Shown here piece by piece: positions 3,228-28,288 of a stretch of DNA of 32,000 bases (position 1 is the first letter of the stretch; each line of letters starts with the position of its first letter). The position numbers and the translations under genes are program-made. The notes under the pieces are model-generated. The model saw only the letters and a list, made by a program, of their open reading frames with translations. It did not search any database and was not told where the DNA came from. The stretch lies in assembly GCF_003367075.2 (NCBI RefSeq), contig NZ_CP065936.1:3390001-3422000 (forward strand), written 5' to 3'. The DNA is from Cylindrospermopsis raciborskii Cr2010 (lineage in GTDB: Bacteria > Cyanobacteriota > Cyanobacteriia > Cyanobacteriales > Nostocaceae).

Positions 3228-4409
3228 GTGATGACCACAACAACAGCAGAGCGGATAATTTGCAACACCGATATTATCAATGCAAAAGTACCCGGTTATC
3301 AAGGTTTACAGATGATCTGGGTGAACGAGCGGGGGAACATCGAAGAAATCTTACCCATGACCCAGCTGTGTCAAAGACAAACCAGGGATAACTTGCGGGT
3401 TCTGGATTTAGCAGGTGATTGGGTCTCATTGGGTGGTGTGGATCTGCAAATCAATGGGGGTTTGGGTTTAGCATTCCCCGACTTGACAGATAGAAACATC
3501 CACAGACTGGAAGAAATATCAAATTTTTTGTGGGAACAGGGGGTGGATGCTTATTTACCCACTTTAGTGACAACCTCCATAGAAAATATACATCGTTCCC
3601 TAGACCTCATAGCCAATTATGAGCAAAAATCCGGGGCAAAAATTCTAGGAGTCCATTTAGAAGGTCCCTTTTTAAATTATGGTAAACGGGGCGCACATCC
3701 AGCAGAATATTTACTCCCCTTAACCATGAATGAGGTTAATCGGGTATTAGGGGATTATGCTTCCCTGGTGAAGGTCATCACCCTAGCTCCTGAATTAGAT
3801 CCCACTGGGGAAGTCATACCCTATCTGAGATCTTTAGGAATAACGGTGAGTTTAGGACATTCTCTAGCTACAGCAGCACAAGCAGATGAAGCTTTTAGAT
3901 CGGGTGCTACTATGGTGACCCATGCGTTTAATGCCATGCCACCTCTACACCACCGAGAACCAGGTCTATTAGGTGCTGCTATAAATCATCCCCATGTGAT
4001 GAGTAGCTTTATCGCCGATGGACAACACATTGTGCCGCCCATGTTAGAAATTTTATTACGTGCTAGCAAAGGACTATTTCTAGTCAGTGATGCTTTAGCA
4101 CCACTAGGACTACCAGATGGAGAATATCCCTGGGATAGTCGAAAAATTACAGTAAAAAATGGTACAGCTAGATTAGCAGATGGAACCTTATCGGGAACCA
4201 CATTTTCCTTACTAAAAGGAGTACAAAAGCTAGTGCAGTGGCAAATTTGCGACACTGAAACTGGAATCTTTTTAGCTACGGATGGGCCCAGAAAGGCAAT
4301 TAATCTACCCACCATTGGTGCGGGTGTACAGGCCAATTTACTCCGTTGGTTTGAGGATCAAAATACAGGAGAATTGACTTGGAAAAGAATAGAACTTGCT
4401 AGGACATGA
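3228..4409 (+). CDS. nagA: N-acetylglucosamine-6-phosphate deacetylase
   Basis: 393 aa. The motifs GGVDLQINGG, GVHLEGPFLN, ITLAPEL, SLGHS, THAFNAM and FIADGQH match the amidohydrolase NagA signature. Confidence 0.85.
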   Translation: MMTTTTAERIICNTDIINAKVPGYQGLQMIWVNERGNIEEILPMTQLCQRQTRDNLRVLDLAGDWVSLGGVDLQINGGLGLAFPDLTDRNIHRLEEISNFLWEQGVDAYLPTLVTTSIENIHRSLDLIANYEQKSGAKILGVHLEGPFLNYGKRGAHPAEYLLPLTMNEVNRVLGDYASLVKVITLAPELDPTGEVIPYLRSLGITVSLGHSLATAAQADEAFRSGATMVTHAFNAMPPLHHREPGLLGAAINHPHVMSSFIADGQHIVPPMLEILLRASKGLFLVSDALAPLGLPDGEYPWDSRKITVKNGTARLADGTLSGTTFSLLKGVQKLVQWQICDTETGIFLATDGPRKAINLPTIGAGVQANLLRWFEDQNTGELTWKRIELART

Positions 4410-5959
4410 CTATAACAGAAAAAATTCTCTCCCAACTGCCAGGAAACATATTAGAGAACCTACGGCGCAGCGATAAAACTTTAACATCCCTAAAAACCGA
4501 TAACCAAACCTTTACGGAAGTAGTGAAACAGGAATCAACCCCATTAGAATCTATAGATTGGGATGTGATAATTTGTGGTGGGACATTAGGAATTTTAATT
4601 GGTAGTGCCCTAGCAGTGCGGGGAGTGCGAGTAGCATTATTGGAAAAAGGGGTTTTACAGGGAAGAGAACAAGAATGGAATATTTCTCGTCAGGAATTGT
4701 CAGTATTGATAAAATTAGACCTATTGACACAGGAGGAGTTAGCAACAACTATTGTTACCACCTATAACCCAGCGCGGGTAGGTTTTGCCAGTGGTGGGGA
4801 ACTGTGGGTAGAGGATGTACTCAATATTGGGGTAGATCCGATTTGCCTACTCAAAACTCTCAAGAACCGGTTTCTGCTTGCAGGAGGAACATTACTAGAG
4901 AACACCCCATTTAACAACGCGGTGGTCCATTCCAATGGCGTAATGGTGAATAACCAATTTTCAGGTAGATTACTACTAGACGCTATGGGACACCTTTCAC
5001 CCATTAGTAAACAAGCACGCGGGGGTAAAAAACCAGATGCAATATGTTTAGTAGTGGGAAGTTGTGCAGAAGGATTTACCAGCAATGACTCAGGGGATTT
5101 ATTGCTATCCTTTACTACCCTACAAAATCAGTGTCAATACTTTTGGGAAGCCTTCCCCGCACGGGATGGTAGAACCACTTATTTATTTACCTATATTGAC
5201 CCAGCATCCCAGCGGTTAAGCCTAGAAGAACTAATTGGTGAATATTTTCGCTTACTACCAGAATATCAAAAAGTAGAAATTGATAAATTAACTTTTAAAA
5301 GGGTGTTATTTGGTTTTTTTCCTAGTTACCGTCAAAGTCCCTTGCAAACACCTTGGAATTACATTTTACCCGTGGGAGATAGTAGTGGTAATCAGTCACC
5401 CCTAAGTTTTGGTGGATTTGGTGCCATGATTCGTCATTTAGAGCGATTAACCATGGGGATTGAGGAAGCATTACAAACTAATGAATTATGGGCTTCCTCC
5501 TTAAAATTACTACAGCCCTACCAACCTAGTTTAAGTGTGACCTGGTTGTTTCAAAAAGCCATGAGTGTAAGAATAAATCAGCAAATCCCACCGGATCAAA
5601 TTAACCAACTACTGTCCGTAGTATTTACGGAAATGGCAAAATTAGGCACTCGGGTTTTAAAACCTTTTTTACAAGATATAGTGCAATTTTCAGCCTTGAG
5701 TCAAACCTTGTGGAGAACGGGTATAAACCATCCCTTATTAATAGCTAAGATTATTCCCCAAGTTGGTCTTTTCAGTTTGATAGATTGGATAGGTCACTAT
5801 ATAAACCTGCTGATTTTTACCCTTTTATTTTCTTTCAGCTCCATACCAGCACTAGGCAAAATAATTAATAACCTACCAAAAAGTCAACAATATTACATTC
5901 ATCGGTGGATAGATGGTTGGAAATTTGGTTCCGGTAGAGATTACCACCTAAATCCATAG
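4406..5959 (+). CDS. FAD-dependent oxidoreductase, CruA/CruP lycopene-cyclase-like family
   Basis: 517 aa. N-terminal Rossmann motif DVIICGGTLGILIGSALA...LLEKG and an internal GDSSGNQSPLSFGGFGAMIRHL motif, which I recall from CruA/CruP-type proteins. The hydrophobic C-terminus suggests membrane association. ATGA start/stop overlap with nagA. Confidence 0.6.
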   Translation: MTITEKILSQLPGNILENLRRSDKTLTSLKTDNQTFTEVVKQESTPLESIDWDVIICGGTLGILIGSALAVRGVRVALLEKGVLQGREQEWNISRQELSVLIKLDLLTQEELATTIVTTYNPARVGFASGGELWVEDVLNIGVDPICLLKTLKNRFLLAGGTLLENTPFNNAVVHSNGVMVNNQFSGRLLLDAMGHLSPISKQARGGKKPDAICLVVGSCAEGFTSNDSGDLLLSFTTLQNQCQYFWEAFPARDGRTTYLFTYIDPASQRLSLEELIGEYFRLLPEYQKVEIDKLTFKRVLFGFFPSYRQSPLQTPWNYILPVGDSSGNQSPLSFGGFGAMIRHLERLTMGIEEALQTNELWASSLKLLQPYQPSLSVTWLFQKAMSVRINQQIPPDQINQLLSVVFTEMAKLGTRVLKPFLQDIVQFSALSQTLWRTGINHPLLIAKIIPQVGLFSLIDWIGHYINLLIFTLLFSFSSIPALGKIINNLPKSQQYYIHRWIDGWKFGSGRDYHLNP

Positions 5960-7757: not shown

Positions 7758-7855
7758 GATATTGTAAGTTGAGTTCAATAACTCAACATCCCTAAACAAA
7801 CTATGTTATATTAAATTAAACCGATTAAGTCAGTACCAAAGTGGGAGGTATAGAC

Positions 7856-8827
7856 ATGGTGAGGCAAATTCCATCAAAAACTCAACTGGGGGTGATAGAA
7901 TCTAACATTAGTCATGGTGTGGAGACGCCTAAAATTGTCTACCCAGAAAGTGATAATAAACCTATGGCGGATAACACTAGACAATTTACATGGATTGTCA
8001 AAATTAAGGAAAATTTAGAAATACTATTTAAGTCCAATGCAGATGTGTTTGTGGCTGGGGACTTATTTTGGTATCCAGTGGAGGGTAGTAACAAAATTAA
8101 ACTAGCCCCTGACACCATGGTAGTGTTTGGGAGACCCAAGGGGCACCGGGGGTCTTATCGACAGTGGGAGGAGGATAATATTCCTCCCCAGGTGGTGTTT
8201 GAAATTTTATCTCCTAGTAATAATAATACTGAGATGGATAGAAAAAAGCTCTTTTATCTGGAACATGGAGTAGAAGAGTATTATGTGTATGACCCAGATA
8301 GGATTAGTCTAGAAGTATCTATTAGAGAAAATAATTCATTTAAAGAGATTAAGGATTTTAGTGTTTGGACTAGTCCAAGATTGGATGTACGGTTTGATAT
8401 GACGGGAGATGAATTAGTCATCTATTATCCAGACGGTGGTAGGTTTCTTAGTCCTGTAGAGTTGAGTAATTATGCAGAACAAGAAACCCAACGTGCAGAA
8501 CGTGAAAGACTTCTCAAAGAGCAGGAAACTCAACGTGCAGAACGTGAAAGACTTCTCAAAGAACAAGAAACCCAACGTGCAGAACGTGAAAGACTTCTCA
8601 AAGAGCAGGAAACTCAGCGTGCAGAACGTGAAAGACTTCTCAAAGAGCAGGAAACTCAACGTACAGAACGTGAAAAACTTCTCAAAGAGCAGGAAACTCA
8701 ACGTGCAGAACGTGAAAAATTGCTTAAAGAACAAGAAAGATTTCTCAAAGAGCAGGAACAAATAAAGTATCAAACCTTGCTATCACAATTAAAAGCTAAG
8801 GGTATTGATATTACTGCACTCGAATAA
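7856..8827 (+). CDS. Uma2-family (DUF820) PD-(D/E)xK endonuclease with a C-terminal repeat/coiled-coil tail, copy 1
   Basis: Core sequence YPESDNKPMADNTRQF...VFVAGDLFWYP...LAPDTMVVFG...PPQVVFEILSPSN...EEYYVYDP is typical of Uma2. Start set at ATG 7856, which is 7 nt after a GGAGG and equivalent to the ATG of copy 2 (where the upstream GTG is replaced by a stop). The tail has 6 x ETQRAERE(R/K)LLKEQ plus ERFLKEQ. Confidence 0.85.
   Translation: MVRQIPSKTQLGVIESNISHGVETPKIVYPESDNKPMADNTRQFTWIVKIKENLEILFKSNADVFVAGDLFWYPVEGSNKIKLAPDTMVVFGRPKGHRGSYRQWEEDNIPPQVVFEILSPSNNNTEMDRKKLFYLEHGVEEYYVYDPDRISLEVSIRENNSFKEIKDFSVWTSPRLDVRFDMTGDELVIYYPDGGRFLSPVELSNYAEQETQRAERERLLKEQETQRAERERLLKEQETQRAERERLLKEQETQRAERERLLKEQETQRTEREKLLKEQETQRAEREKLLKEQERFLKEQEQIKYQTLLSQLKAKGIDITALE
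8483..8755 (+). repeat. In-frame 42-nt tandem repeat tract in copy 1 (6.5 units)
   Basis: gaaac(c/t)ca(a/g)cgtgcagaacgtgaaagacttctcaaaga(g/a)ca(g/a) repeated head to tail, encoding ETQRAERERLLKEQ. Confidence 0.95.
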
Positions 8828-9309: not shown

Positions 9310-10344
9310 ATGGTGAGGCAAATTGCACCAAAAACTCAACTGGGGGTGATAGAATCTAACATTAGTCAGGGTGTGGAGACGCCTAAAATTGTCTACCCAG
9401 AAAGTGATAATAAACCTATGGCGGATAACACTAGACAATTTACATGGATTGTCAAAATTAAGGAAAATTTAGAAATACTATTTAAGTCCAATGCAGATGT
9501 GTTTGTGGCTGGGGACTTATTTTGGTATCCAGTGGAGGGTAGTAACAAAATTAAACTAGCCCCTGACACCATGGTAGTGTTTGGGAGACCCAAGGGGCAC
9601 CGGGGGTCTTATCGACAGTGGGAAGAGGATAATATTCCTCCCCAGGTGGTTTTTGAAATTTTATCTCCCGGGAATACTCAAGATGAAATGGACAAAAAAA
9701 AGCTGTTTTATCTGAAACATGGAGTAGAAGAGTATTATGTGTATGACCCAGATAGGATTAGTCTAGAAGTATCTATTAGAGAAAATAATTCATTTAAAGA
9801 GATTAAGGATTTTAGTGTTTGGACTAGTCCAAGATTGGATGTACGGTTTGATATGACGGGAGATGAATTAGTCATCTATTATCCAGACGGTGGTAGGTTT
9901 CTTAGTCCTGTAGAGTTGAGTAATTATGCAGAACAAGAAACCCAACGTGCAGAACGTGAAAGACTTCTCAAAGAGCAGGAAACTCAGCGTGCAGAACGTG
10001 AAAGACTTCTCAAAGAGCAGGAAACTCAGCGTGCAGAACGTGAAAGACTTCTCAAAGAGCAGGAAACTCAGCGTGCAGAACGTGAAAGACTTCTCAAAGA
10101 GCAGGAAACTCAACGTACAGAACGTGAAAGACTTCTCAAAGAGCAGGAAACTCAACGTGCAGAACGTGAAAAATTGCTTAAAGAACAAGAAAGATTTCTC
10201 AAAGAGCAGGAAACTCAACGTGCAGAACGTGAAAAATTGCTTAAAGAACAAGAAAGATTTCTCAAAGAGCAGGAACAAATAAAGTATCAAACCTTGCTAT
10301 CACAATTAAAAGCTAAGGGTATTGATATTACTGCACTCGAATAA
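9310..10344 (+). CDS. Uma2-family endonuclease with C-terminal repeat tail, copy 2
   Basis: 344 aa. The N-terminal about 205 aa are nearly identical to copy 1, with differences clustered at SPGNTQDEMDKKK versus SPSNNNTEMDRKK. The tail has 5 x 14-aa units and 2 x 21-aa units. Offset from copy 1 is exactly 1454 nt. Confidence 0.88.
   Translation: MVRQIAPKTQLGVIESNISQGVETPKIVYPESDNKPMADNTRQFTWIVKIKENLEILFKSNADVFVAGDLFWYPVEGSNKIKLAPDTMVVFGRPKGHRGSYRQWEEDNIPPQVVFEILSPGNTQDEMDKKKLFYLKHGVEEYYVYDPDRISLEVSIRENNSFKEIKDFSVWTSPRLDVRFDMTGDELVIYYPDGGRFLSPVELSNYAEQETQRAERERLLKEQETQRAERERLLKEQETQRAERERLLKEQETQRAERERLLKEQETQRTERERLLKEQETQRAEREKLLKEQERFLKEQETQRAEREKLLKEQERFLKEQEQIKYQTLLSQLKAKGIDITALE
9937..10272 (+). 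repeat. In-frame 42/63-nt tandem repeat tract in copy 2
   Basis: Five 42-nt units followed by two 63-nt units (ETQRAEREKLLKEQERFLKEQ). Confidence 0.95.
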
Positions 10345-11493: not shown

Positions 11494-11591
11494 GATATTG
11501 TAAGTTGAGTTCAATAACTCAACATCCCTAAACAAACTATGTTATATTAAATTAAACCGATTAAGTCAGTACCAAAGTGGGAGGTATAGAC

Positions 11592-12479
11592 ATGGTGAGG
11601 CAAATTCCATCAAAAACTCAACTGGGGGTGATAAAATCTAACACTAATCAGGGTGTGGACACGCCTAAAATTGTCTACCCAGAAAGTGATAATAAACCTA
11701 TGGCGGATAACACTAGACAATTTACATGGATTGTCAAAATTAAGGAAAATTTAGAAATACTATTTAAGTCCAATGCAGATGTGTTTGTGGCTGGGGACTT
11801 ATTTTGGTATCCAGTGGAGGGTAGTAACAAAATTAAACTAGCCCCTGACACCATGGTAGTGTTTGGGAGACCCAAGGGGCACCGGGGGTCTTATCTACAG
11901 TGGGAGGAGGATAATATTCCTCCCCAGGTGGTGTTTGAAATTTTATCTCCTGGTAATAATAATACTGAGATGGATAGAAAAAAGCTCTTTTATCTGGAAC
12001 ATGGAGTGGAGGAGTATTATGTATATGATCCAGATAGGATTAGTCTAGAAGTATCCATTAGAGAAAATAACTCATTTAAGGAGATTGAGAATTTTACCAC
12101 TTGGACCAGTCCAAGATTGAAAATAAGATTTGACATGAGCCAAGATGAATTAGTCATCTATTATCCAGATGGGAGTAAGTTTCTTAGTCCTGTAGAATTG
12201 AGTAATTATGCAGAACAAGAAACTCAACGTGCAGAACGTGAAAAATTGCTTAAAGAACAAGAAAGATTTCTCAAAGAGCAGGAAACTCAACGTGCAGAAC
12301 GTGAAAAATTGCTTAAAGAACAAGAAAGATTTCTCAAAGAGCAGGAAACTCAACGTGCAGAACGTGAAAAATTGCTTAAAGAACAAGAAAGATTTCTCAA
12401 AGAGCAGGAACAAATAAAGTATCAAACCTTGCTATCACAATTAAAAGCTAAGGGTATTGATATTACTGCACTCGAATAA
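11592..12479 (+). CDS. Uma2-family endonuclease with C-terminal repeat tail, copy 3 (most diverged)
   Basis: Same architecture, with more substitutions (KSNTNQGVD, ENFTTWTSPRLKIRFDMSQDE, DGSKF). The tail is 3 x the 21-aa unit only. Start at ATG 11592, by analogy with copy 2. Confidence 0.85.
   Translation: MVRQIPSKTQLGVIKSNTNQGVDTPKIVYPESDNKPMADNTRQFTWIVKIKENLEILFKSNADVFVAGDLFWYPVEGSNKIKLAPDTMVVFGRPKGHRGSYLQWEEDNIPPQVVFEILSPGNNNTEMDRKKLFYLEHGVEEYYVYDPDRISLEVSIRENNSFKEIENFTTWTSPRLKIRFDMSQDELVIYYPDGSKFLSPVELSNYAEQETQRAEREKLLKEQERFLKEQETQRAEREKLLKEQERFLKEQETQRAEREKLLKEQERFLKEQEQIKYQTLLSQLKAKGIDITALE
12219..12407 (+). repeat. In-frame 63-nt tandem repeat tract in copy 3 (3 units)
   Basis: gaaactcaacgtgcagaacgtgaaaaattgcttaaagaacaagaaagatttctcaaagagcag repeated three times. 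Confidence 0.95.
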
Positions 12480-23676: not shown

Positions 23677-23747
23677 GGAGGGTTAATTCCCCAGTAACCC
23701 ATAACAGAAAGCCATAAAAAATAAGAATGTAGTTGGGAGTTTAACAA

Positions 23748-25019
23748 ATGTGGCAACGAATGATCAATGCTTTGACCAAGTGGTTGACCAAAATTAAAAA
23801 CTTGCTTTTTAAAAACAAACCGCCTGCAGAAAAAAAAGAACGTCCAAAAGTTAGTGAATATACTGCCACCAAAGGCCCAGAAAGTAGTTCAGAACCTCCA
23901 TCCTCAAAGCCTCCCAATAAAAAGAGGGTAAGAGATCCATTTGCCAATGCTCGTGGCCAAAATATTCTTTTTACCAAGGGAGTTTTATTTGAGGATCCCC
24001 AACCTGAAATAAATTCCTTGCAAAAAAAAGTCCTAGAAATCTTATTTTCTGTATTTAACTTATCGATAAAAGAGGATGACATTTATGTAGCTTACTTTCC
24101 CTCCCGTTTACTTTATTATATTGAGAAACAAGATTGTTTTTCAGCCTTCCGACGATTTCTCAATGATATTGGCAGAACACCTGATGAAGTTTTTAAAAAC
24201 CCTAAAACAGCTACCTTTATTAAAGATATCATACTAGGTCTCTACGAAGCTGATATTAACTGTTGGGATACTGGAATTAGTACCGAGCCTTTATATCAAC
24301 ATTTAAGAGAAACTGCTGCAAATGTTGATTATAATTTGGAGAGTTTTATCAACCTGCTAAGTCGAATAGAGAAATTGGCAATTTTGATTCACCAACTACA
24401 AAGAATTGCCGGGCAAATTCCCTTCGACTCATTTAGAAAGTTTTCTCAAACAGTCAACTCAAGTTTAAAATCTTGGCATACTTTGTCAGACACAACTTTC
24501 GATCAATGGACAAATTCACTCAATGACTACAAATCACAATTTAGGGACTATCAGTATTTTTCTGAAGTAATTGACCAAAACTGCTTTAGACTCAGAAGTA
24601 CTATGGCTGTAATACCACAAGAGATAATCAATGTCATTGAGAATTTATTAGAAGAAGTAGAACAACTTAAACAGAAACTGAAAATTGGATCAATTTCCAT
24701 AAACGAAGGACTAGGTGAACTGGGAACCTTAGCGAGTGAAATCAAGGGGTTTGTTGATGAAGTTTTGCATCGTAACCAAGAAACTAACAGTTCAAGAAAA
24801 GAGGATTTTGCATATACAAGCAACACATTATCTCTTGATGAAGCATTCAGGTTACTAAATTTAACTCGTGAAACAATATCAATGAAATTACTCAAAACAG
24901 CACGCAACAAATGTGCAAGAGACTACCACCCTGACATGGGTGGGGATGTAAACATGATGAAAAGAATTAATGAAGCTTACGAAATATTAAAAGATTACCT
25001 AGAAAATCGACATACTTAA
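23748..25019 (+). CDS. Protein with a C-terminal J (DnaJ) domain and an uncharacterised about 350-aa N-terminal region
   Basis: The last about 65 aa, LSLDEAFRLLNLTRETISMKLLKTARNKCARDYHPDMGGDVNMMKRINEAYEILKDYL, contain the HPD tripeptide with the helix II/III pattern of J domains. The N-terminus has a K/P/S-rich low-complexity segment followed by helical sequence with no motif I recognise. Confidence 0.75.
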   Translation: MWQRMINALTKWLTKIKNLLFKNKPPAEKKERPKVSEYTATKGPESSSEPPSSKPPNKKRVRDPFANARGQNILFTKGVLFEDPQPEINSLQKKVLEILFSVFNLSIKEDDIYVAYFPSRLLYYIEKQDCFSAFRRFLNDIGRTPDEVFKNPKTATFIKDIILGLYEADINCWDTGISTEPLYQHLRETAANVDYNLESFINLLSRIEKLAILIHQLQRIAGQIPFDSFRKFSQTVNSSLKSWHTLSDTTFDQWTNSLNDYKSQFRDYQYFSEVIDQNCFRLRSTMAVIPQEIINVIENLLEEVEQLKQKLKIGSISINEGLGELGTLASEIKGFVDEVLHRNQETNSSRKEDFAYTSNTLSLDEAFRLLNLTRETISMKLLKTARNKCARDYHPDMGGDVNMMKRINEAYEILKDYLENRHT

Positions 25020-25027
25020 GCCCAATC

Positions 25028-25100
25028 TACGAAAATCTATTGCTGTTGATTGTTGATAACCCTACCTTTCATTGTGGTAGTCAGATTGCTCAGTATTTAT
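25028..25100 (+). repeat. Copy 1 of an about 75-nt direct repeat: transposase-gene debris
   Basis: tacgaaaatctattgct...gattgttgataaccctacctttcattgtggtagtcagattgctcagtatttat. It is similar to 25540-25617 with several substitutions and a small indel. Confidence 0.7.
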
Positions 25101-25398
25101 TGTGATTTGTAAATCACGGTCAAAAAGCGCTTTTGGTGAGGAGATCTGCTGCGCACCAATTTTTTTCAATGGTGGGGGTTGACTATTGACCCTTGGACGT
25201 GATACCCTGATAATGGAAATTTGTGCATTTTTTTTACAACTGCTTACACTCCATTATACTTAACCCTCATAATACCACATTTTTATCCCCTCGGCCACAA
25301 AAAAACTTATCTCATCCCCCCATAAATATAATTTTTTCTTATTATTTATTCCTATATATATATACATGAATGTAGATAGATAAGATTGAGCGCCTTTT

Positions 25399-25480
25399 GT
25401 AGGTTAGGTTGACATCGAGAAACCCAACGTCAATCATTTAAACAAAAAGAGCTATCTCGCGAGTGCTTCGCAATCGCATT
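25399..25480. repeat. Solitary copy of the M3-like and inverted M1-like hairpin modules
   Basis: gtaggttaggttgacatcgagaaacccaacgtcaatc resembles M3 (gtaggttgggttgaggaacgaaacccaacaaaccaac). ctcgcgagtgcttcgcaatcgc is the reverse complement of the M1 core gcgattgcgaagcactc. Confidence 0.65.
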
Positions 25481-25539
25481 CCTTTTGTGATTAATTAGTT
25501 TCCTCGCTAACTCGTGGGTCTTCCCATGAGTTACAATGC

Positions 25540-25617
25540 TACAAAAATCTATTGCTACGTGGGTGATTGTTGATAACGCTACCTTTCATCGTGGTGGTCA
25601 GATTGCTCAATATTTAT
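25540..25617 (+). repeat. Copy 2 of the about 75-nt direct repeat; reads as a DDE-transposase C-terminal fragment
   Basis: Translation SIATWVIVDNATFHRGGQIAQYL* contains a DNAxFH-type segment, as in IS630/Tc1-mariner-like transposases. Only about 25 codons, so the assignment is tentative. Confidence 0.45.
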
Positions 25618-25700
25618 AAAGTCTAGTTTATACTGGTTACTTCTTGATGAAACTGTCTTAACAAATCTTAACATACTTTACTTCTTAACAGGTGTTCAAA

Positions 25701-25743: not shown

Positions 25744-26487
25744 ATGTCTCAAGATCCTTTTAAAAGTTCTCTGGATCACATCAAGACTAGAGATAAACAG
25801 TCACTTACACGGGAACCGAGAACCTATGACCAGCTAATTGCAAAATATGCCAAACCCATACGGATTATGGGTTTGGTAGATGCAACAGGTTCCATGAAAC
25901 CCGTGTGGGATAAAACCCTGGAGAGCATACAAGAATTAATCCGTCGAATCTTAGAAGCAGGAAGGATGGAGCTATCTTGGGTTGCTTATCGAGATTACTG
26001 TGATCATCACAGAATTATTGAGCAGAGTGATTGGAGTAGCTCAGTGGAATACTTCAAAACCTTCATGGACAAAATTAGTTGTAATGGTGGTGGAGATTTC
26101 CCAGAAGCAGTGGAAAAAGCATTAGAAGTTGCTATTGAAGAATTTGATGTTTCTAGAGTTATTCTTATTGGGGATGCACCTCCTCATGAGGATAAAGATT
26201 ATCGAGGTCAAGCAATTGAACTAGGAAAACTAAATAGACCCGTGTTCAGCTTTGTAGTTGGCAATCATCCCGATACACAAAGAACCTTTGGGGAGATTTC
26301 CGAGCTTTCTAGTGGGGTTTGTTTTAATCTAGAAAACCACGAAGATATTGTGGACTTAATTGCAGTTACCGTGATAGATCAAATTGGGGGACAAAAATCC
26401 TTAGGTAAGTACCTAAATTCCTATGGATCCAGTTTATCTCCCAGCGTGAAAAAATTTATTCAGCAGCTTCCTCCTAGCAAAAATTAG
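25744..26487 (+). CDS. Cytoplasmic von Willebrand factor type A (vWA) domain protein with a MIDAS-like motif
   Basis: 247 aa with no signal peptide or TM. Beta-strand plus motif pattern: IRIMGLVDATGSM (DxTxS, D46/T48/S50), LSWVAYRDY, CNGGGDFPEAVEKAL, and RVILIGDAPPH (D144). Confidence 0.75.
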   Translation: MSQDPFKSSLDHIKTRDKQSLTREPRTYDQLIAKYAKPIRIMGLVDATGSMKPVWDKTLESIQELIRRILEAGRMELSWVAYRDYCDHHRIIEQSDWSSSVEYFKTFMDKISCNGGGDFPEAVEKALEVAIEEFDVSRVILIGDAPPHEDKDYRGQAIELGKLNRPVFSFVVGNHPDTQRTFGEISELSSGVCFNLENHEDIVDLIAVTVIDQIGGQKSLGKYLNSYGSSLSPSVKKFIQQLPPSKN

Positions 26488-26508
26488 AAATTAACTGAAA
26501 CTTCAATT

Positions 26509-27612
26509 ATGACCTCAACTATGACTTCAATGAAAAACTTTAAAATCTGGTATTTGGGCGGAATAGTTTTGTCAATAGTGTTGACAGTATTCGCTCATGT
26601 TAATCAGAACAATGAGCTGAGTCCATTAATACTTGTGTTTGGTGTTGGACATGTTTTAATCTTGGCTATTATGGGGTTTAGAATTCAAAAGTCCAAGGAT
26701 AGAGCTGCAGCTGGTTTAAGAGTGCAAACATCTGGTTATCTTCATACCCTGATAGGATTTAGTGCTGCTTTATTTCAACTAGATCCTGAAAATTTACTAG
26801 CAACAATTGTGGTTCCTTTAAGTTATGCTCTATTTACCAGTATTGTTGGTTGGTGTTTGGGTGGAGAATTGGTAAATGAATTCCATGAACAATCAGGAGA
26901 TCCTATTACTAATGAGTCCGAAAAGCTTGCTCAAGAATTTAGAAATTTTGCAGATTCTTTGACTGTAATTCACAGAAGATATGCCCAAGAAATAAGCAAT
27001 GCTTCTGAATCTTTTCAAGATCATCTACAAAGGGTAGCAGTAGCTTATGAAAGAATGCTGGATACCTATGAACTTCAACTTAATAGATTGAATAAAAAAC
27101 ACTCAGAATTATCCGAGCAACTAGAAACTTCTCAACAGAAATTCATTGATACTCAGAGTAGATACTATCAAAAACACTCAGAATTATCCGAGCAACTAGA
27201 AACTTCTCAACAAAGGTTTATCGATAATCAGAATAGGTACTATCTGCAAATGGAGAATGCTATTGAAGCTCAACTTAGTAGATTGATTGCAAAACACTCG
27301 GAATTATATAATCAACTAGATAATCAATTAGAAACTTCTCAACAAAGGTTTGTCGATAGCCAAAATAGATGCTATGTTCAAATGGAAGGTGCCATTAATT
27401 ATTTTACTAGTATCTTATCCGGAGAAAAAATATCTTATTTCGCTAGCAGTTTTGCATCCCTAAATGAACAGACAAATTTCGCATCCCAAAGTATGGAAAA
27501 AGTGGCAATCTCATCTAAAAATGTGTCTAGATACTTGGATAATAGCAAAGTTTTAATCGAGGAACTGGAAAATTTACTTAATTTAATTAGCTCTTACCGG
27601 AGGACAAGTTAG
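26509..27612 (+). CDS. 4-TM MotA/ExbB/TolQ-like membrane protein with a long C-terminal coiled-coil tail (ZorA-like architecture)
   Basis: 367 aa. TM1 IWYLGGIVLSIVLTVFAHV, TM2 LSPLILVFGVGHVLILAIMGF, basic loop RIQKSKDRAAAGLR, TM3 GYLHTLIGFSAALFQL, TM4 IVVPLSYALFTSIVGWCLGG. The TM3/TM4 pattern resembles GLLGTVxG...ALxTTxxGL of MotA/ExbB. It is followed by about 240 aa of heptad-rich sequence with 25-aa repeats, and its stop overlaps the start of an OmpA/MotB-like gene. Confidence 0.55.
   Translation: MTSTMTSMKNFKIWYLGGIVLSIVLTVFAHVNQNNELSPLILVFGVGHVLILAIMGFRIQKSKDRAAAGLRVQTSGYLHTLIGFSAALFQLDPENLLATIVVPLSYALFTSIVGWCLGGELVNEFHEQSGDPITNESEKLAQEFRNFADSLTVIHRRYAQEISNASESFQDHLQRVAVAYERMLDTYELQLNRLNKKHSELSEQLETSQQKFIDTQSRYYQKHSELSEQLETSQQRFIDNQNRYYLQMENAIEAQLSRLIAKHSELYNQLDNQLETSQQRFVDSQNRCYVQMEGAINYFTSILSGEKISYFASSFASLNEQTNFASQSMEKVAISSKNVSRYLDNSKVLIEELENLLNLISSYRRTS
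27097..27378 (+). repeat. Internal 75-nt (25-aa) repeats in the coiled-coil tail
   Basis: KHSELSEQLETSQQKFIDTQSRYYQ (27097-27171) and KHSELSEQLETSQQRFIDNQNRYYL (27172-27246) are adjacent. A third, diverged copy, KHSELYNQLDNQLETSQQRFVDSQNRCYV, lies at 27292-27378. The flanks QLNRLNK and QLSRLIA are also related. Confidence 0.85.
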
Positions 27613-28235
27613 TGCAAATCAAAAGTAATATGGAACAAGCGGAGATTTTTGTCTTCATTGCTTCCTTTTTCTTGATCGCTCTTGGATTTACAGAATCTAA
27701 CAAACCACAGCAGGAAGCTAAACCTCATGATAAACCACCAATCATTGAACTTTATGAAACTTCCGAGTATAAATTTGATTCCGGTCGTGCTGAATTAAAG
27801 CCAGATTTCAAGAAGTATATTCGCAGGGAACTGAGACCAGAAATTTTGAGAATCACGAAAGAATATCCCATTGATGTAATTGAAGTAATTGGTCATACTG
27901 ATGGACAACCAATTAGTGGTATTAACTCACCAACAGAAAATAACTACAGCAATTTAGATTATAGTTTGGAAAAAGTTAATCTTGGCAAATTACCTGTTGC
28001 TCAATTACGTCCCGGTTCTAATACTGACTTAGGAATTATGAGAGCTTTGGCTGTTGTTCAAGAACTGAAAAAATCCGGAGGAGAAATTGCTAAACTCAAG
28101 TTTAGAACCTACTCCGCAGGACAATTATTATTAGAAAATGGGTTGCCAGCTGACATAGATAAAAGGGGTAATTCCAAAAGAAGAAGAATTGAAATCCGTT
28201 TCACAAAGTTGGGTAAAACTGAAAAAGTTCAGTAA
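27612..28235 (+). CDS. MotB/OmpA-like protein: one N-terminal TM helix plus a periplasmic OmpA-type peptidoglycan-binding domain
   Basis: 207 aa. TM AEIFVFIASFFLIALGF, then FDSGRAELKPDF..., IEVIGHTDGQP, NTDLGIMRALAVVQELK and KRRRIEIRF, which are OmpA_C-like motifs. The GTG at 27612 overlaps the upstream TAG by 1 nt; ATG 27630 is an alternative start. Confidence 0.75.
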   Translation: MQIKSNMEQAEIFVFIASFFLIALGFTESNKPQQEAKPHDKPPIIELYETSEYKFDSGRAELKPDFKKYIRRELRPEILRITKEYPIDVIEVIGHTDGQPISGINSPTENNYSNLDYSLEKVNLGKLPVAQLRPGSNTDLGIMRALAVVQELKKSGGEIAKLKFRTYSAGQLLLENGLPADIDKRGNSKRRRIEIRFTKLGKTEKVQ

Positions 28236-28267: not shown

Positions 28268-28288
28268 GAGCAGGTTTTAAACCTGCTC
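28268..28288. terminator. Perfect palindrome between the convergent OmpA-like gene and dxs (candidate bidirectional terminator)
   Basis: GAGCAGGTTT-T-AAACCTGCTC, with 10-nt complementary arms. Confidence 0.5.

Follow-up and report, generated by a model that had tools for sequence, protein, structure and literature searches.

What kind of machine is encoded between era and dxs in Cylindrospermopsis raciborskii Cr2010, a bloom-forming toxic cyanobacterium whose phage-resistance determinants are poorly known? The stretch that we analysed, hereafter the window, comprises 32,000 nucleotides (positions 3,390,001 to 3,422,000 of contig NZ_CP065936.1), and all coordinates are given in window numbering (1-32,000). 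It contains an operon of four genes on the + strand, encoding a J-domain protein, a vWA (von Willebrand factor A) protein (gene 1), a MotA/ZorA-like protein (gene 2) and a MotB/ZorB-like protein (gene 3), which together make up a compact system of about 1,250 amino acids (aa). An earlier note, made from the sequence alone, had described genes 1 to 3 as a Zorya-like stator module with a vWA partner. The three open reading frames (ORFs) were recovered at the same coordinates, with the 21-nt spacer between genes 1 and 2 and the one-base overlap between the gene 2 stop codon (TAG, 27610-27612) and the gene 3 start codon (GTG, 27612-27614); the unit itself proved longer, a conserved fourth gene, that of the J-domain protein, having been left out. 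Because homologues keep this gene order across at least five phyla, chance ORFs are excluded, and genes 1, 2 and 3 are judged on this conservation to be genuine genes. The gene 2 product is 100% identical to a C. raciborskii protein. Our reading, to which we give a probability of about 0.75, is that genes 2 and 3 form a peptidoglycan-anchored complex of the ZorAB/MotAB type, its tail in the cytoplasm, with which the vWA and J proteins work as functional partners. The features of the operon are listed in the table.

Table. Features of the operon and its immediate surroundings, in window coordinates.
Feature	Position	Strand	Evidence or remark
J-domain protein, 423 aa	23748..25019	+	Pfam DnaJ; structure model and Foldseek; full-length homologues
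Insertion between J and vWA genes	25023..25620		Bounded by a pair of ~80-bp direct repeats, which code for an IS630-like transposase fragment (IVDNATFHRGGQIAQYL)
Gene 1, vWA protein, 247 aa	25744..26487	+	Pfam VWA_4
Gene 2, 367 aa	26509..27612	+	Structure model, profiles, alignments
Gene 2 membrane core, aa 1-128	26509..26892	+	Four predicted transmembrane helices; MotA/ExbB/ZorA-type channel hairpin
Gene 2 helical tail, aa 129-367, predicted cytoplasmic	26893..27612	+	Structure model, charge bias
In-frame 75-bp tandem duplication, gene 2 tail	27095..27244	+	2 copies, 89% match
Gene 3, MotB/ZorB-like, 207 aa, GTG start	27612..28235	+	Profile, motifs
Terminator-like hairpin	28268..28288	+	Located after gene 3 and before the convergent dxs; consensus scan only, count not above shuffled expectation

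The AlphaFold2 (AF2) model of gene 2 (predicted local distance difference test score, pLDDT, 79) contains helices at residues 8-32, 35-57, 62-89, 93-127, 133-302 and 312-366, the first four of which form the membrane core. The charge distribution places the N-terminus and the loop between transmembrane (TM) helices 2 and 3 inside and the other loops outside, and owing to this N-in/C-in bias the heptad-rich tail of about 240 aa is predicted to lie in the cytoplasm, as had been proposed. In the model, the tail is built of a 170-residue helix (about 25 nm if straight) and a 55-residue return helix, with a conserved C-terminal motif, YLxESxxLIxELExLL. In Foldseek, the sole low-rmsd match of the core was chain 8vvi_C, a type II ZorA (root mean square deviation 2.3 Å over 84 columns, template-modelling score 0.69 on the target, probability 1.0). 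The core profile searched against the PDB gave a single membrane-protein match, to 8vvi_F (type II ZorA of Sulfuricurvum kujiense), which is weak (E 0.76) and in register across three helices, and HHalign aligned the core over helices 2-4 with a group of proteins scoring to MotA_ExbB (96.2%, E 2.7e-9, 75 columns). An exhaustive profile search collected 134 clusters (50% identity) at E<=1e-10, the distant end of which grades into proteins scoring to Pfam MotA_ExbB and into a bona fide ZorA2 (P0174, PADLOC 2.6e-76); among these distant members, P0165 reaches 26.7 bits against MotA_ExbB (PF01618), above the gathering threshold (GA) of 22.9, and P0162, P0170 and P0172 fall below GA.

Family alignments of gene 2 revealed two near-invariant core motifs, RxQTxGYLHTLIGF in TM3 and PLxxALxTSIxGWxxGGE in TM4. 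Residues G69, Q73, T74, G76, Y77, L78, H79, T80, L81, G83 and F84 are invariant, as are P103, A107, L108, T110, S111, G114, W115, G118, G119 and E120 on the TM4 side. T74, T80, T110 and S111 thus supply the conserved polar residues of a MotA/ExbB/TolQ hairpin, and T80 and T110/S111 are what we take, from the alignment register and established knowledge, to be the counterparts of ExbB T148 and T181. In the model, gene 2 also has the ZorA layout, a MotA-like core followed by a long cytoplasmic C-terminal tail. Curated models were silent: MotA_ExbB (PF01618) matched neither gene 2 nor any of 17 family members even at E<=10, and full-length gene 2 returned only coiled-coil noise (apolipoproteins, methyl-accepting chemotaxis proteins, designed bundles) from Pfam, NCBIfam and PDB profiles. 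Against curated ZorA models, the best PADLOC score was 23 bits and NCBIfam ZorA_3 gave 13.3 bits for a cut-off of 250, both under threshold; these matches are confined to the coiled-coil tail and were discounted as evidence of homology. Altogether, the 8VVI structural match, the weak direct profile match and the HHalign result all fall on the side of the earlier view of gene 2 as a four-TM protein of the MotA/ZorA type, and the structural models make this likeness, in core and layout, well supported. Gene 2 represents a family of about 130 sequence clusters that had so far gone unrecognised.

Gene 3 provides the adjacent single-TM B-subunit found in the MotA/ExbB/TolQ superfamily. It has a short cytoplasmic N-terminus, one TM helix, a PPII motif and, at aa ~42-200, a putative peptidoglycan-binding domain of the OmpA type. 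Its family profile matched only MotB (6ysf), MotS (9ljk) and Clostridium sporogenes MotB (8ucs) in the PDB, at E~6e-4, and the motifs PPII, D(A/V)IE(V/I)IGHTD, SNxDLGxxRA and RRRIEI are invariant, in agreement with the MotB/ZorB-like assignment of the earlier note. Matches to curated models stay under their cut-offs, with 16.8 bits for Pfam OmpA (PF00691, cut-off 27.2), 15 bits for the ZorB2 model (threshold 400) and sub-threshold NCBIfam/PADLOC matches to MotB, MotD, TssL, YiaD and ZorB. The TM helix starts at Glu11 (codon 27642-27644), in the context x-E-(I/V/L)-F; this acidic residue at the TM edge, already pointed out in the earlier note, is present in 21/21 distinct homologues, none of which has Asp. 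MotB, PomB, ExbD, TolR and ZorB carry Asp at this position. In ZorB the essential TM Asp is D26 in type I and D21 in type II (PMC11946911, PMC11890865). Judged by the alignment, a Glu-type B-subunit is a family-level departure from the Asp stators; since E11 remains a protonatable carboxylate, the mechanism may persist. In Thiotrichales and a Halothece clade, gene 3 contains a coiled-coil insert of 70-100 aa between the TM helix and the peptidoglycan-binding domain (loci L005, 6956-7759; L007, 6981-7871; L015; L016; L019; L023), made of ENQRLE-type repeats in Candidatus Kentrum, which suggests that the reach of gene 3 to the wall may be tuned lineage by lineage.

The product of gene 1 scored above the Pfam VWA_4 cut-off (34.9 bits for 27, 1.4e-8), and its family comprises 201 matches. 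Its site, similar to a metal ion-dependent adhesion site (MIDAS), reads D46-A-T48-G-S50, D118/E121, D144 and is conserved across 24 relatives, in which D46, T48, S50 and D144 are invariant; with D118/E121 in place of the usual Thr it is, by sequence, a variant MIDAS with a putative metal site. As no hydrophobic segment was found, neither signal peptide nor TM helix, the protein is predicted to be soluble and cytoplasmic, and the earlier description of a soluble vWA protein with a DxTxS...D pattern holds. This localization bears on whether genes 2 and 3 could be an energiser of the Tol/Ton/Mot/Agl type, exerting force outward for motility, secretion, outer-membrane maintenance or uptake instead of signalling inward. 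Genes 2 and 3 belong to the same ion-driven motor superfamily, and a role as periplasmic force transducers has been suggested for vWA proteins that are linked to TolQR-like motors (PMC12204202), but the window vWA is predicted to stay in the cytoplasm, and the elaborated part of gene 2 is a ZorA-like cytoplasmic tail, not a periplasmic or FliG-binding element. Moreover, TonB, TolA, Pal, Glt or Gld partners were not found nearby in the loci surveyed, and a core envelope function would call for a far commoner family, which makes such an energiser very improbable.

The protein encoded by the first gene of the operon starts with a basic amphipathic helix (residues 1-20); a Pro-rich, disordered linker (21-85) leads on to a helical domain (~90-347), and the J-domain lies at the C-terminus (363-421). 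The Pfam DnaJ score (27.0 bits, E 5e-6) is marginally below the GA of 27.8. In Foldseek, the modelled J-domain matched that of Tim14, its closest match in both structure and sequence (probability 1.0, 35% identity), as well as those of DnaJ and Ydj1, and the HPD tripeptide (394-396) is invariant among relatives. By fold and HPD, this is a J-domain, and Hsp40 co-chaperone activity is expected from it. The central helical domain gave no convincing match in a Foldseek search of PDB structures and appears from its model to be novel. PADLOC models returned only weak coiled-coil matches for the J-protein (LmuB, PDC-S35) and none for the vWA protein. A 113-aa antisense ORF (23741-24082, - strand) overlies the 5' end of the J-protein gene, with no evidence that it is a gene.

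The J-protein is homologous over its full length to the first operon gene in Calditrichota and Thiotrichales, and three members of the vWA family are natural J-domain::vWA fusions (P0207, P0219, P0257), one of which directly follows a dedicated GrpE-Hsp70 pair. By a Rosetta-stone argument, these fusions beside GrpE-Hsp70 suggest a joint action of the J and vWA proteins with Hsp70, and the sequence comparisons mark the J-protein as a conserved operon member, probably tied functionally to the vWA protein. J+vWA pairs also occur elsewhere without the membrane genes. A metagenomic locus (L036, 3669-9741) encodes GrpE, Hsp70, a J-domain::vWA fusion, a 315-aa protein with apparently one hydrophobic helix and an RHS/YD-repeat protein, with TPR proteins and an ABC-ATPase on the flanks; stator-like genes are absent from it, and it may be a distinct Hsp70-centred system sharing the same vWA clade.

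How constant is the association of these four genes? A first genome scan with the single gene 2 protein as query came back empty, and an alignment of the TM core was required. The core-motif scan of 185,579 species genomes then gave 23 loci, mostly in cyanobacteria, with others in Acidobacteriota, Thiotrichales and Bacteroidota, and metagenomes gave 26 further loci; de-duplication left 39 gene 2 clusters, to which all following counts refer. In the weakest scan match, a Roseiflexaceae (Chloroflexota) locus, the gene 2 core was absent on a hidden Markov model check. Gene 3 lies directly downstream of gene 2 in 36/39, and contig ends account for two of the three exceptions. The J-vWA-gene2-gene3 order of the window (class A; 8 complete and 3 truncated loci) recurs in Cyanobacteria, Calditrichota, Thiotrichales, Acidobacteriota and a Bacteroidota integrative conjugative element (ICE), its hosts including a Calditrichota genome, Candidatus Kentrum/Thiotrichales, a Pyrinomonadaceae metagenome-assembled genome (MAG), an ICE of Flagellimonas, Raphidiopsis brookii and Snowella. 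In class B (6/39), the pair is preceded by the helical subdomain of the J-protein (window aa ~85-245, without the J-domain) or by a J-like protein lacking HPD. Class C (11/39) has the order gene2-gene3-vWA(PF00092)-PP2C_2-Pkinase/GUN4, often after a kinase and a giant SPFH/vWA protein, and class D (11/39) has none of those partners. A vWA protein is found in the cytoplasmic module of 22/39 loci. What stays constant is the pair of genes 2 and 3, and the cytoplasmic module is interchangeable; the vWA protein is a conserved partner lying outside the known Zorya effectors, as claimed in the earlier note, and its co-occurrence with genes 2 and 3 extends across phyla, but it is not universal, modules being swapped between clades. 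The homology and architecture of the four proteins, their conserved linkage and the exchange of cytoplasmic partners are thus matters of observation.

Several class D loci adjoin a Tubulin_2 (FtsZl1) protein, and one clade has, next to the gene 2/gene 3 pair, a Tubulin_2 protein (5.2e-51) as well as another protein carrying a tubulin-like G-box. FtsZl1 operons with vWA proteins, OmpA-family proteins and kinases were described by Makarova & Koonin (2010), who proposed a role in membrane remodelling, and that description probably touched the gene 2/gene 3 family, its MotA-like partner going unrecognised. The window operon could accordingly be imagined as a membrane-remodelling or cytoskeletal machine in which genes 2 and 3 are the anchor and the vWA protein an assembly factor. 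This is unlikely: a tubulin-like gene is absent from the window locus and from most others, the J-domain would be left without a role, and the 2010 idea is a proposal whose components were recast as conflict systems by Kaur et al. 2020 (PMC7159879).

Other loci vary in composition and integrity. On one contig (CAJHXH010000180.1), two divergent gene 2/gene 3 pairs lie about 9 kb apart (L044 and L062), each with kinase/PP2C/vWA neighbours. Upstream of class C pairs (L010, 2960-4552; L025, 2730-6941; L017, 1609-6774), we found a protein combining a caspase domain (Peptidase_C14) with HATPase_c_4, weakly like an Argonaute-associated PADLOC model, and giant SPFH/Band7+vWA proteins of 1400-1700 aa behind a GUN4-containing gene; these are further conflict-system-like neighbours. 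In the Calditrichota locus (L003, 6691-8875), an IS66 element (TnpA, TnpB and an accessory ORF) sits within gene 2, in the stretch that codes for the tail; downstream of the element, gene 3 and a 71-aa C-terminal piece of gene 2 are intact, and a second IS66 copy follows. Among the loci of Dactylococcopsis MAGs (L013, L018, L020) and of Crocosphaera (L028, L061, L064), some have gene 2 without gene 3, the next gene being on the opposite strand, and in others genes 2 and 3 are fragmented, a sign of decay in some lineages.

Is the window copy itself intact? The J-vWA gap is 725 bp in the window, and J and vWA genes abut or overlap in other phyla. The mobile-element debris that had been noticed by the operon is confirmed there, as the two repeats of the table (cores 25047-25100 and 25564-25617, 93% identical) with about 440 bp of AT-rich non-coding DNA between them; it looks like a decayed insertion and is also found in other strains at the era-dxs locus. 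Gene 2 has 367 aa for 306-312 aa in relatives because of the tandem duplication in its tail, a third degenerate copy of which extends to ~27330. This duplication is the only strain-variable part of the operon and lengthens the predicted helix by about 50-60 residues relative to other alleles; it also yields doubled spurious promoter- and terminator-like matches on the minus strand. One could therefore suppose a decaying remnant that no longer works as a unit, its J gene split off by an insertion carrying IS630-like fragments and its tail recently duplicated, all the more since relatives show clear decay, through the IS66 split in Calditrichota and the fragmented genes of Crocosphaera L028. All four ORFs are nevertheless intact with every invariant residue kept, the arrangement including the insertion is maintained at 97-99% identity between strains, and tail length varies in-frame, so that we hold a dead remnant to be extremely improbable.

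Within the genus, the operon occupies two loci, era-dxs (the window, strain G7 and many other strains) and a position between a Ser/Thr kinase gene and mgtE (L008, L031, L032; Raphidiopsis brookii D9, C. raciborskii CENA303 and others), and the operons of the two loci are paralogous, only 69-74% identical in DNA. The low identity of some Cylindrospermopsis alleles reflects these two loci and not allelic diversification, and a hypervariable defence locus was rejected. One source annotates the kinase-mgtE copy of gene 2 as 'MgtC/SapB family protein', probably in error. The operon is a stable chromosomal feature in the genus, not a hypervariable defence island, and in the window its flanks are housekeeping genes: upstream lie secA, rpmB and era, and downstream dxs, rpiA and a DUF29 gene. 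Beyond the genus, the ICE copy, the disruptions by insertion sequence (IS) elements and the phyletic pattern show horizontal spread with occasional decay.

These two faces of the distribution bear on the main rival, a housekeeping device for envelope proteostasis or stress and not immunity, in which a peptidoglycan-anchored, stator-like complex would signal or make use of the condition of the envelope or the proton motive force (PMF), the J-protein would bring DnaK to the membrane, for instance for quality control or for insertion and translocation of envelope proteins, and the vWA protein would be a substrate adaptor. Its analogue is Tim14/Pam18, a membrane J-protein placing Hsp70 at an import channel, and Tim14 is the nearest match of our J-domain. 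A stable operon with housekeeping flanks, kept in many strains and at two paralogous loci, would suit such a device, as would the absence of a toxic effector domain from the operon proteins and the existence of J+vWA pairs, and of J::vWA fusions beside Hsp70/GrpE, without membrane genes. A housekeeping role would however predict a broader, vertical distribution, whereas the family is extremely sporadic, at 23 loci in 185,579 species genomes over unrelated phyla, with one copy inside an ICE and others disrupted by or adjoining IS elements; its partners moreover give way elsewhere to kinase/PP2C/vWA and tubulin-like modules, which are characteristic of conflict systems. We therefore consider the proteostasis device rather unlikely, while treating it as the most serious competitor. 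A phage origin of the operon was unsupported, viral contigs being without relatives and PHROG matches remaining at J-domain level only.

The rest of the window adds little to the operon. Three tandem Uma2 paralogues (PF05685, DUF820, restriction-endonuclease-like), each with a C-terminal extension, lie at 7841-8827, 9310-10344 and 11577-12479; the first also matches FAZ1_C, and in one surveyed locus (L050) a Uma2 gene is found just upstream of the gene 2/gene 3 pair. Two overlapping same-strand ORFs of 393 and 517 aa (3228-4409 and 4406-5959), without Pfam match at E<=1e-5, stand between cobW and a fatty-acid hydroxylase/SDR fusion gene. The Rfam scan of the window gave no RNA elements, and the promoter and terminator scans gave counts at chance level.

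How could the four proteins work together? By analogy with MotAB and ZorAB, genes 2 and 3 would assemble into an ion-driven inner-membrane complex, presumably 5:2, anchored to peptidoglycan through the OmpA-like domain of gene 3, with the invariant Glu11 as the protonatable residue facing the Thr/Ser ring of gene 2 (T80, T110/S111). The gene 2 C-termini would bundle into a cytoplasmic tail of about 25 nm, and, as proposed for Zorya, a disturbance of the envelope, for example by an entering phage or by damage to the wall, could start ion flow and tail movement. The signal might then pass to the vWA protein as a MIDAS-dependent adaptor and to the J-protein, which would dock via its novel helical domain, its HPD J-domain recruiting and activating DnaK/Hsp70 at the site; the output would be the Hsp70-driven remodelling or sequestration of a target, either for anti-phage or conflict defence or for an envelope-stress response. 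The stoichiometry, the ion flow, the sensed cue, the contacts between tail, vWA and J proteins and the biological role are what we infer here by analogy. A conflict or defence role is favoured because the distribution is sporadic and mobile and the alternative partner modules (vWA+PP2C+kinase, Tubulin_2) have in earlier work been counted among the themes of conflict systems.

Several results weigh against this picture. The operon proteins reach no curated ZorA, ZorB or MotA_ExbB threshold, PADLOC matched no system on them, and the fold match to 8vvi_C spans a small helical bundle with a weak E-value (0.14). Glu stands in place of the Asp used by every characterised stator, and gene 3 is missing from some Dactylococcopsis loci. 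Domain scans of the operon proteins found no nuclease or other obvious toxic effector, and no relatives were found in viral contigs. Finally, the stable setting among housekeeping genes weakens a defence or conflict role: in each of the two loci, operon and flanks are equally conserved between strains (97-99%), era-dxs alleles are present in many named strains, and a paralogous second locus exists, so that the earlier idea of an accessory gap with a defence-island-like origin is unsupported. We thus place the full model, a four-component Zorya-like envelope sensor with Hsp70 output and a role in defence, conflict or envelope stress, at even odds. A broader view, in which genes 2 and 3 are a Glu-based branch of the 5:2 ion motors and an envelope "front end" for interchangeable vWA-centred modules, with output here to Hsp70 through the J and vWA proteins, is tentative and on balance doubtful.

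Ion-driven 5:2 motors (Mot, Ton, Tol, Gld, Agl, Zorya), a small group of machines, use the membrane potential to do work. Zorya has shown that such a motor can serve as an intracellular alarm (PMC11946911, PMC11890865), and the present family would extend the principle to a Glu carboxylate, a minimal tail and non-nuclease outputs, namely Hsp70 co-chaperones, vWA adaptors, kinase/phosphatase switches and tubulin-like proteins. Genes 2 and 3 would also be the unrecognised membrane component linking orphan modules such as TerY-P-like triads, FtsZl1/Tubulin_2 neighbourhoods and J/vWA pairs, and compact constructs could help to show which cue ZorAB-type sensors respond to and how the cell reads a rotating tail.

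It remains to situate the operon among known systems. Like the TolQR-associated vWA force transducers (PMC12204202), it couples a vWA protein genetically to a motor of the MotA/TolQ family; there, the vWA proteins are TM-tethered and periplasmic, some replacing TolR, whereas here the vWA is predicted to be soluble and cytoplasmic, next to a separate MotB-like subunit. Apart from that study, full-text searches gave no paper linking Zorya or ZorA with vWA or J-domains. With flagellar MotA/MotB (and MotS, PomB) the operon shares the PDB profile matches of gene 3, the A-then-B gene order and a TM hairpin with conserved Thr; gene 2 differs in lacking the large TM2-TM3 cytoplasmic loop for FliG and in its long C-terminal tail, and gene 3 in having Glu for Asp. 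To our knowledge, cyanobacteria have no flagella. The operon is not a Tol/Ton/Mot operon.

MoxR AAA+/vWA pairs and the systems of Kaur et al. 2020 (PMC7159879) likewise pair a vWA protein with an ATP-driven chaperone component, and the Hsp70/GrpE/DnaJ, tubulin and kinase+PP2C themes treated there as conflict systems, together with vWA co-chaperones, recur in our neighbourhoods; those systems are enriched in multicellular and filamentous bacteria. The link to the chaperone is here a J-domain (Hsp70) and not MoxR, a STAND/GTPase core is absent, and PMC7159879 describes no MotA/MotB-like membrane module. The class C triads, in which vWA (PF00092), PP2C_2 and Pkinase follow genes 2 and 3 (11/39), recall the TerY-P triad (Anantharaman 2012; Gao 2020), TerY-P-like triads being cited as a validated defence module in PMC10542128. 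Membership of TerY-P was rejected, neither vWA nor PP2C matching the PADLOC TerY-P models; the triad kinase carries GUN4 and resembles the PD-T4-6 defence kinase. The window locus, in contrast, has no triad, and its vWA belongs to a different clade (VWA_4).

The likeness to Zorya type I (ZorABCD), which we propose for the operon, lies in a peptidoglycan-anchored, PMF-driven motor, envelope sensing and a long tail leading to soluble co-encoded proteins, the ZorA5B2 motor of type I sensing envelope perturbation and signalling via the long ZorA tail (PMC11946911). That tail is about 70 nm long (about 500 aa), for about 25 nm predicted here, and its effectors are the DNA-binding ZorC and the nuclease ZorD, whereas a nucleic-acid-targeting domain is absent here; no ZorC/ZorD, ZorE or ZorF/ZorG components were found in the operon, which has the vWA and J proteins instead. 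With Zorya type II (PDB 8VVI, S. kujiense; PMC11890865) it shares a compact MotA-like core running straight into a cytoplasmic helical tail of ~240-280 aa (ZorA2: core 1-100, tail 100-378) and a partner gene directly downstream, for a protein with one TM helix, a carboxylate on the cytoplasmic end of that helix and a peptidoglycan-binding domain of the OmpA type (putative in gene 3). The differences from type II are an extra N-terminal TM helix in gene 2 (4, for about 3 inferred in ZorA2 from the alignment register), the signature motifs QTAGYLHTLIGF and TSIxGWxxGGE, Glu instead of Asp in the B-subunit, and the vWA and J proteins as partners in the absence of the ZorE nickase. By every curated criterion tested, the operon is not Zorya: the models are unmatched, the TM Asp is replaced and the effectors are absent. 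The comparison with named systems that the earlier note had suggested, made against PADLOC and the literature, matched none of them to the combination, and a stator-type pair with a cytoplasmic vWA protein and a J-protein predicted to recruit Hsp70 has not been described before. Should the broader view above hold, a stator-type rotary motor would here be coupled directly to Hsp70 for the first time, in effect as a new Zorya type or class with a chaperone and not a nuclease as effector.

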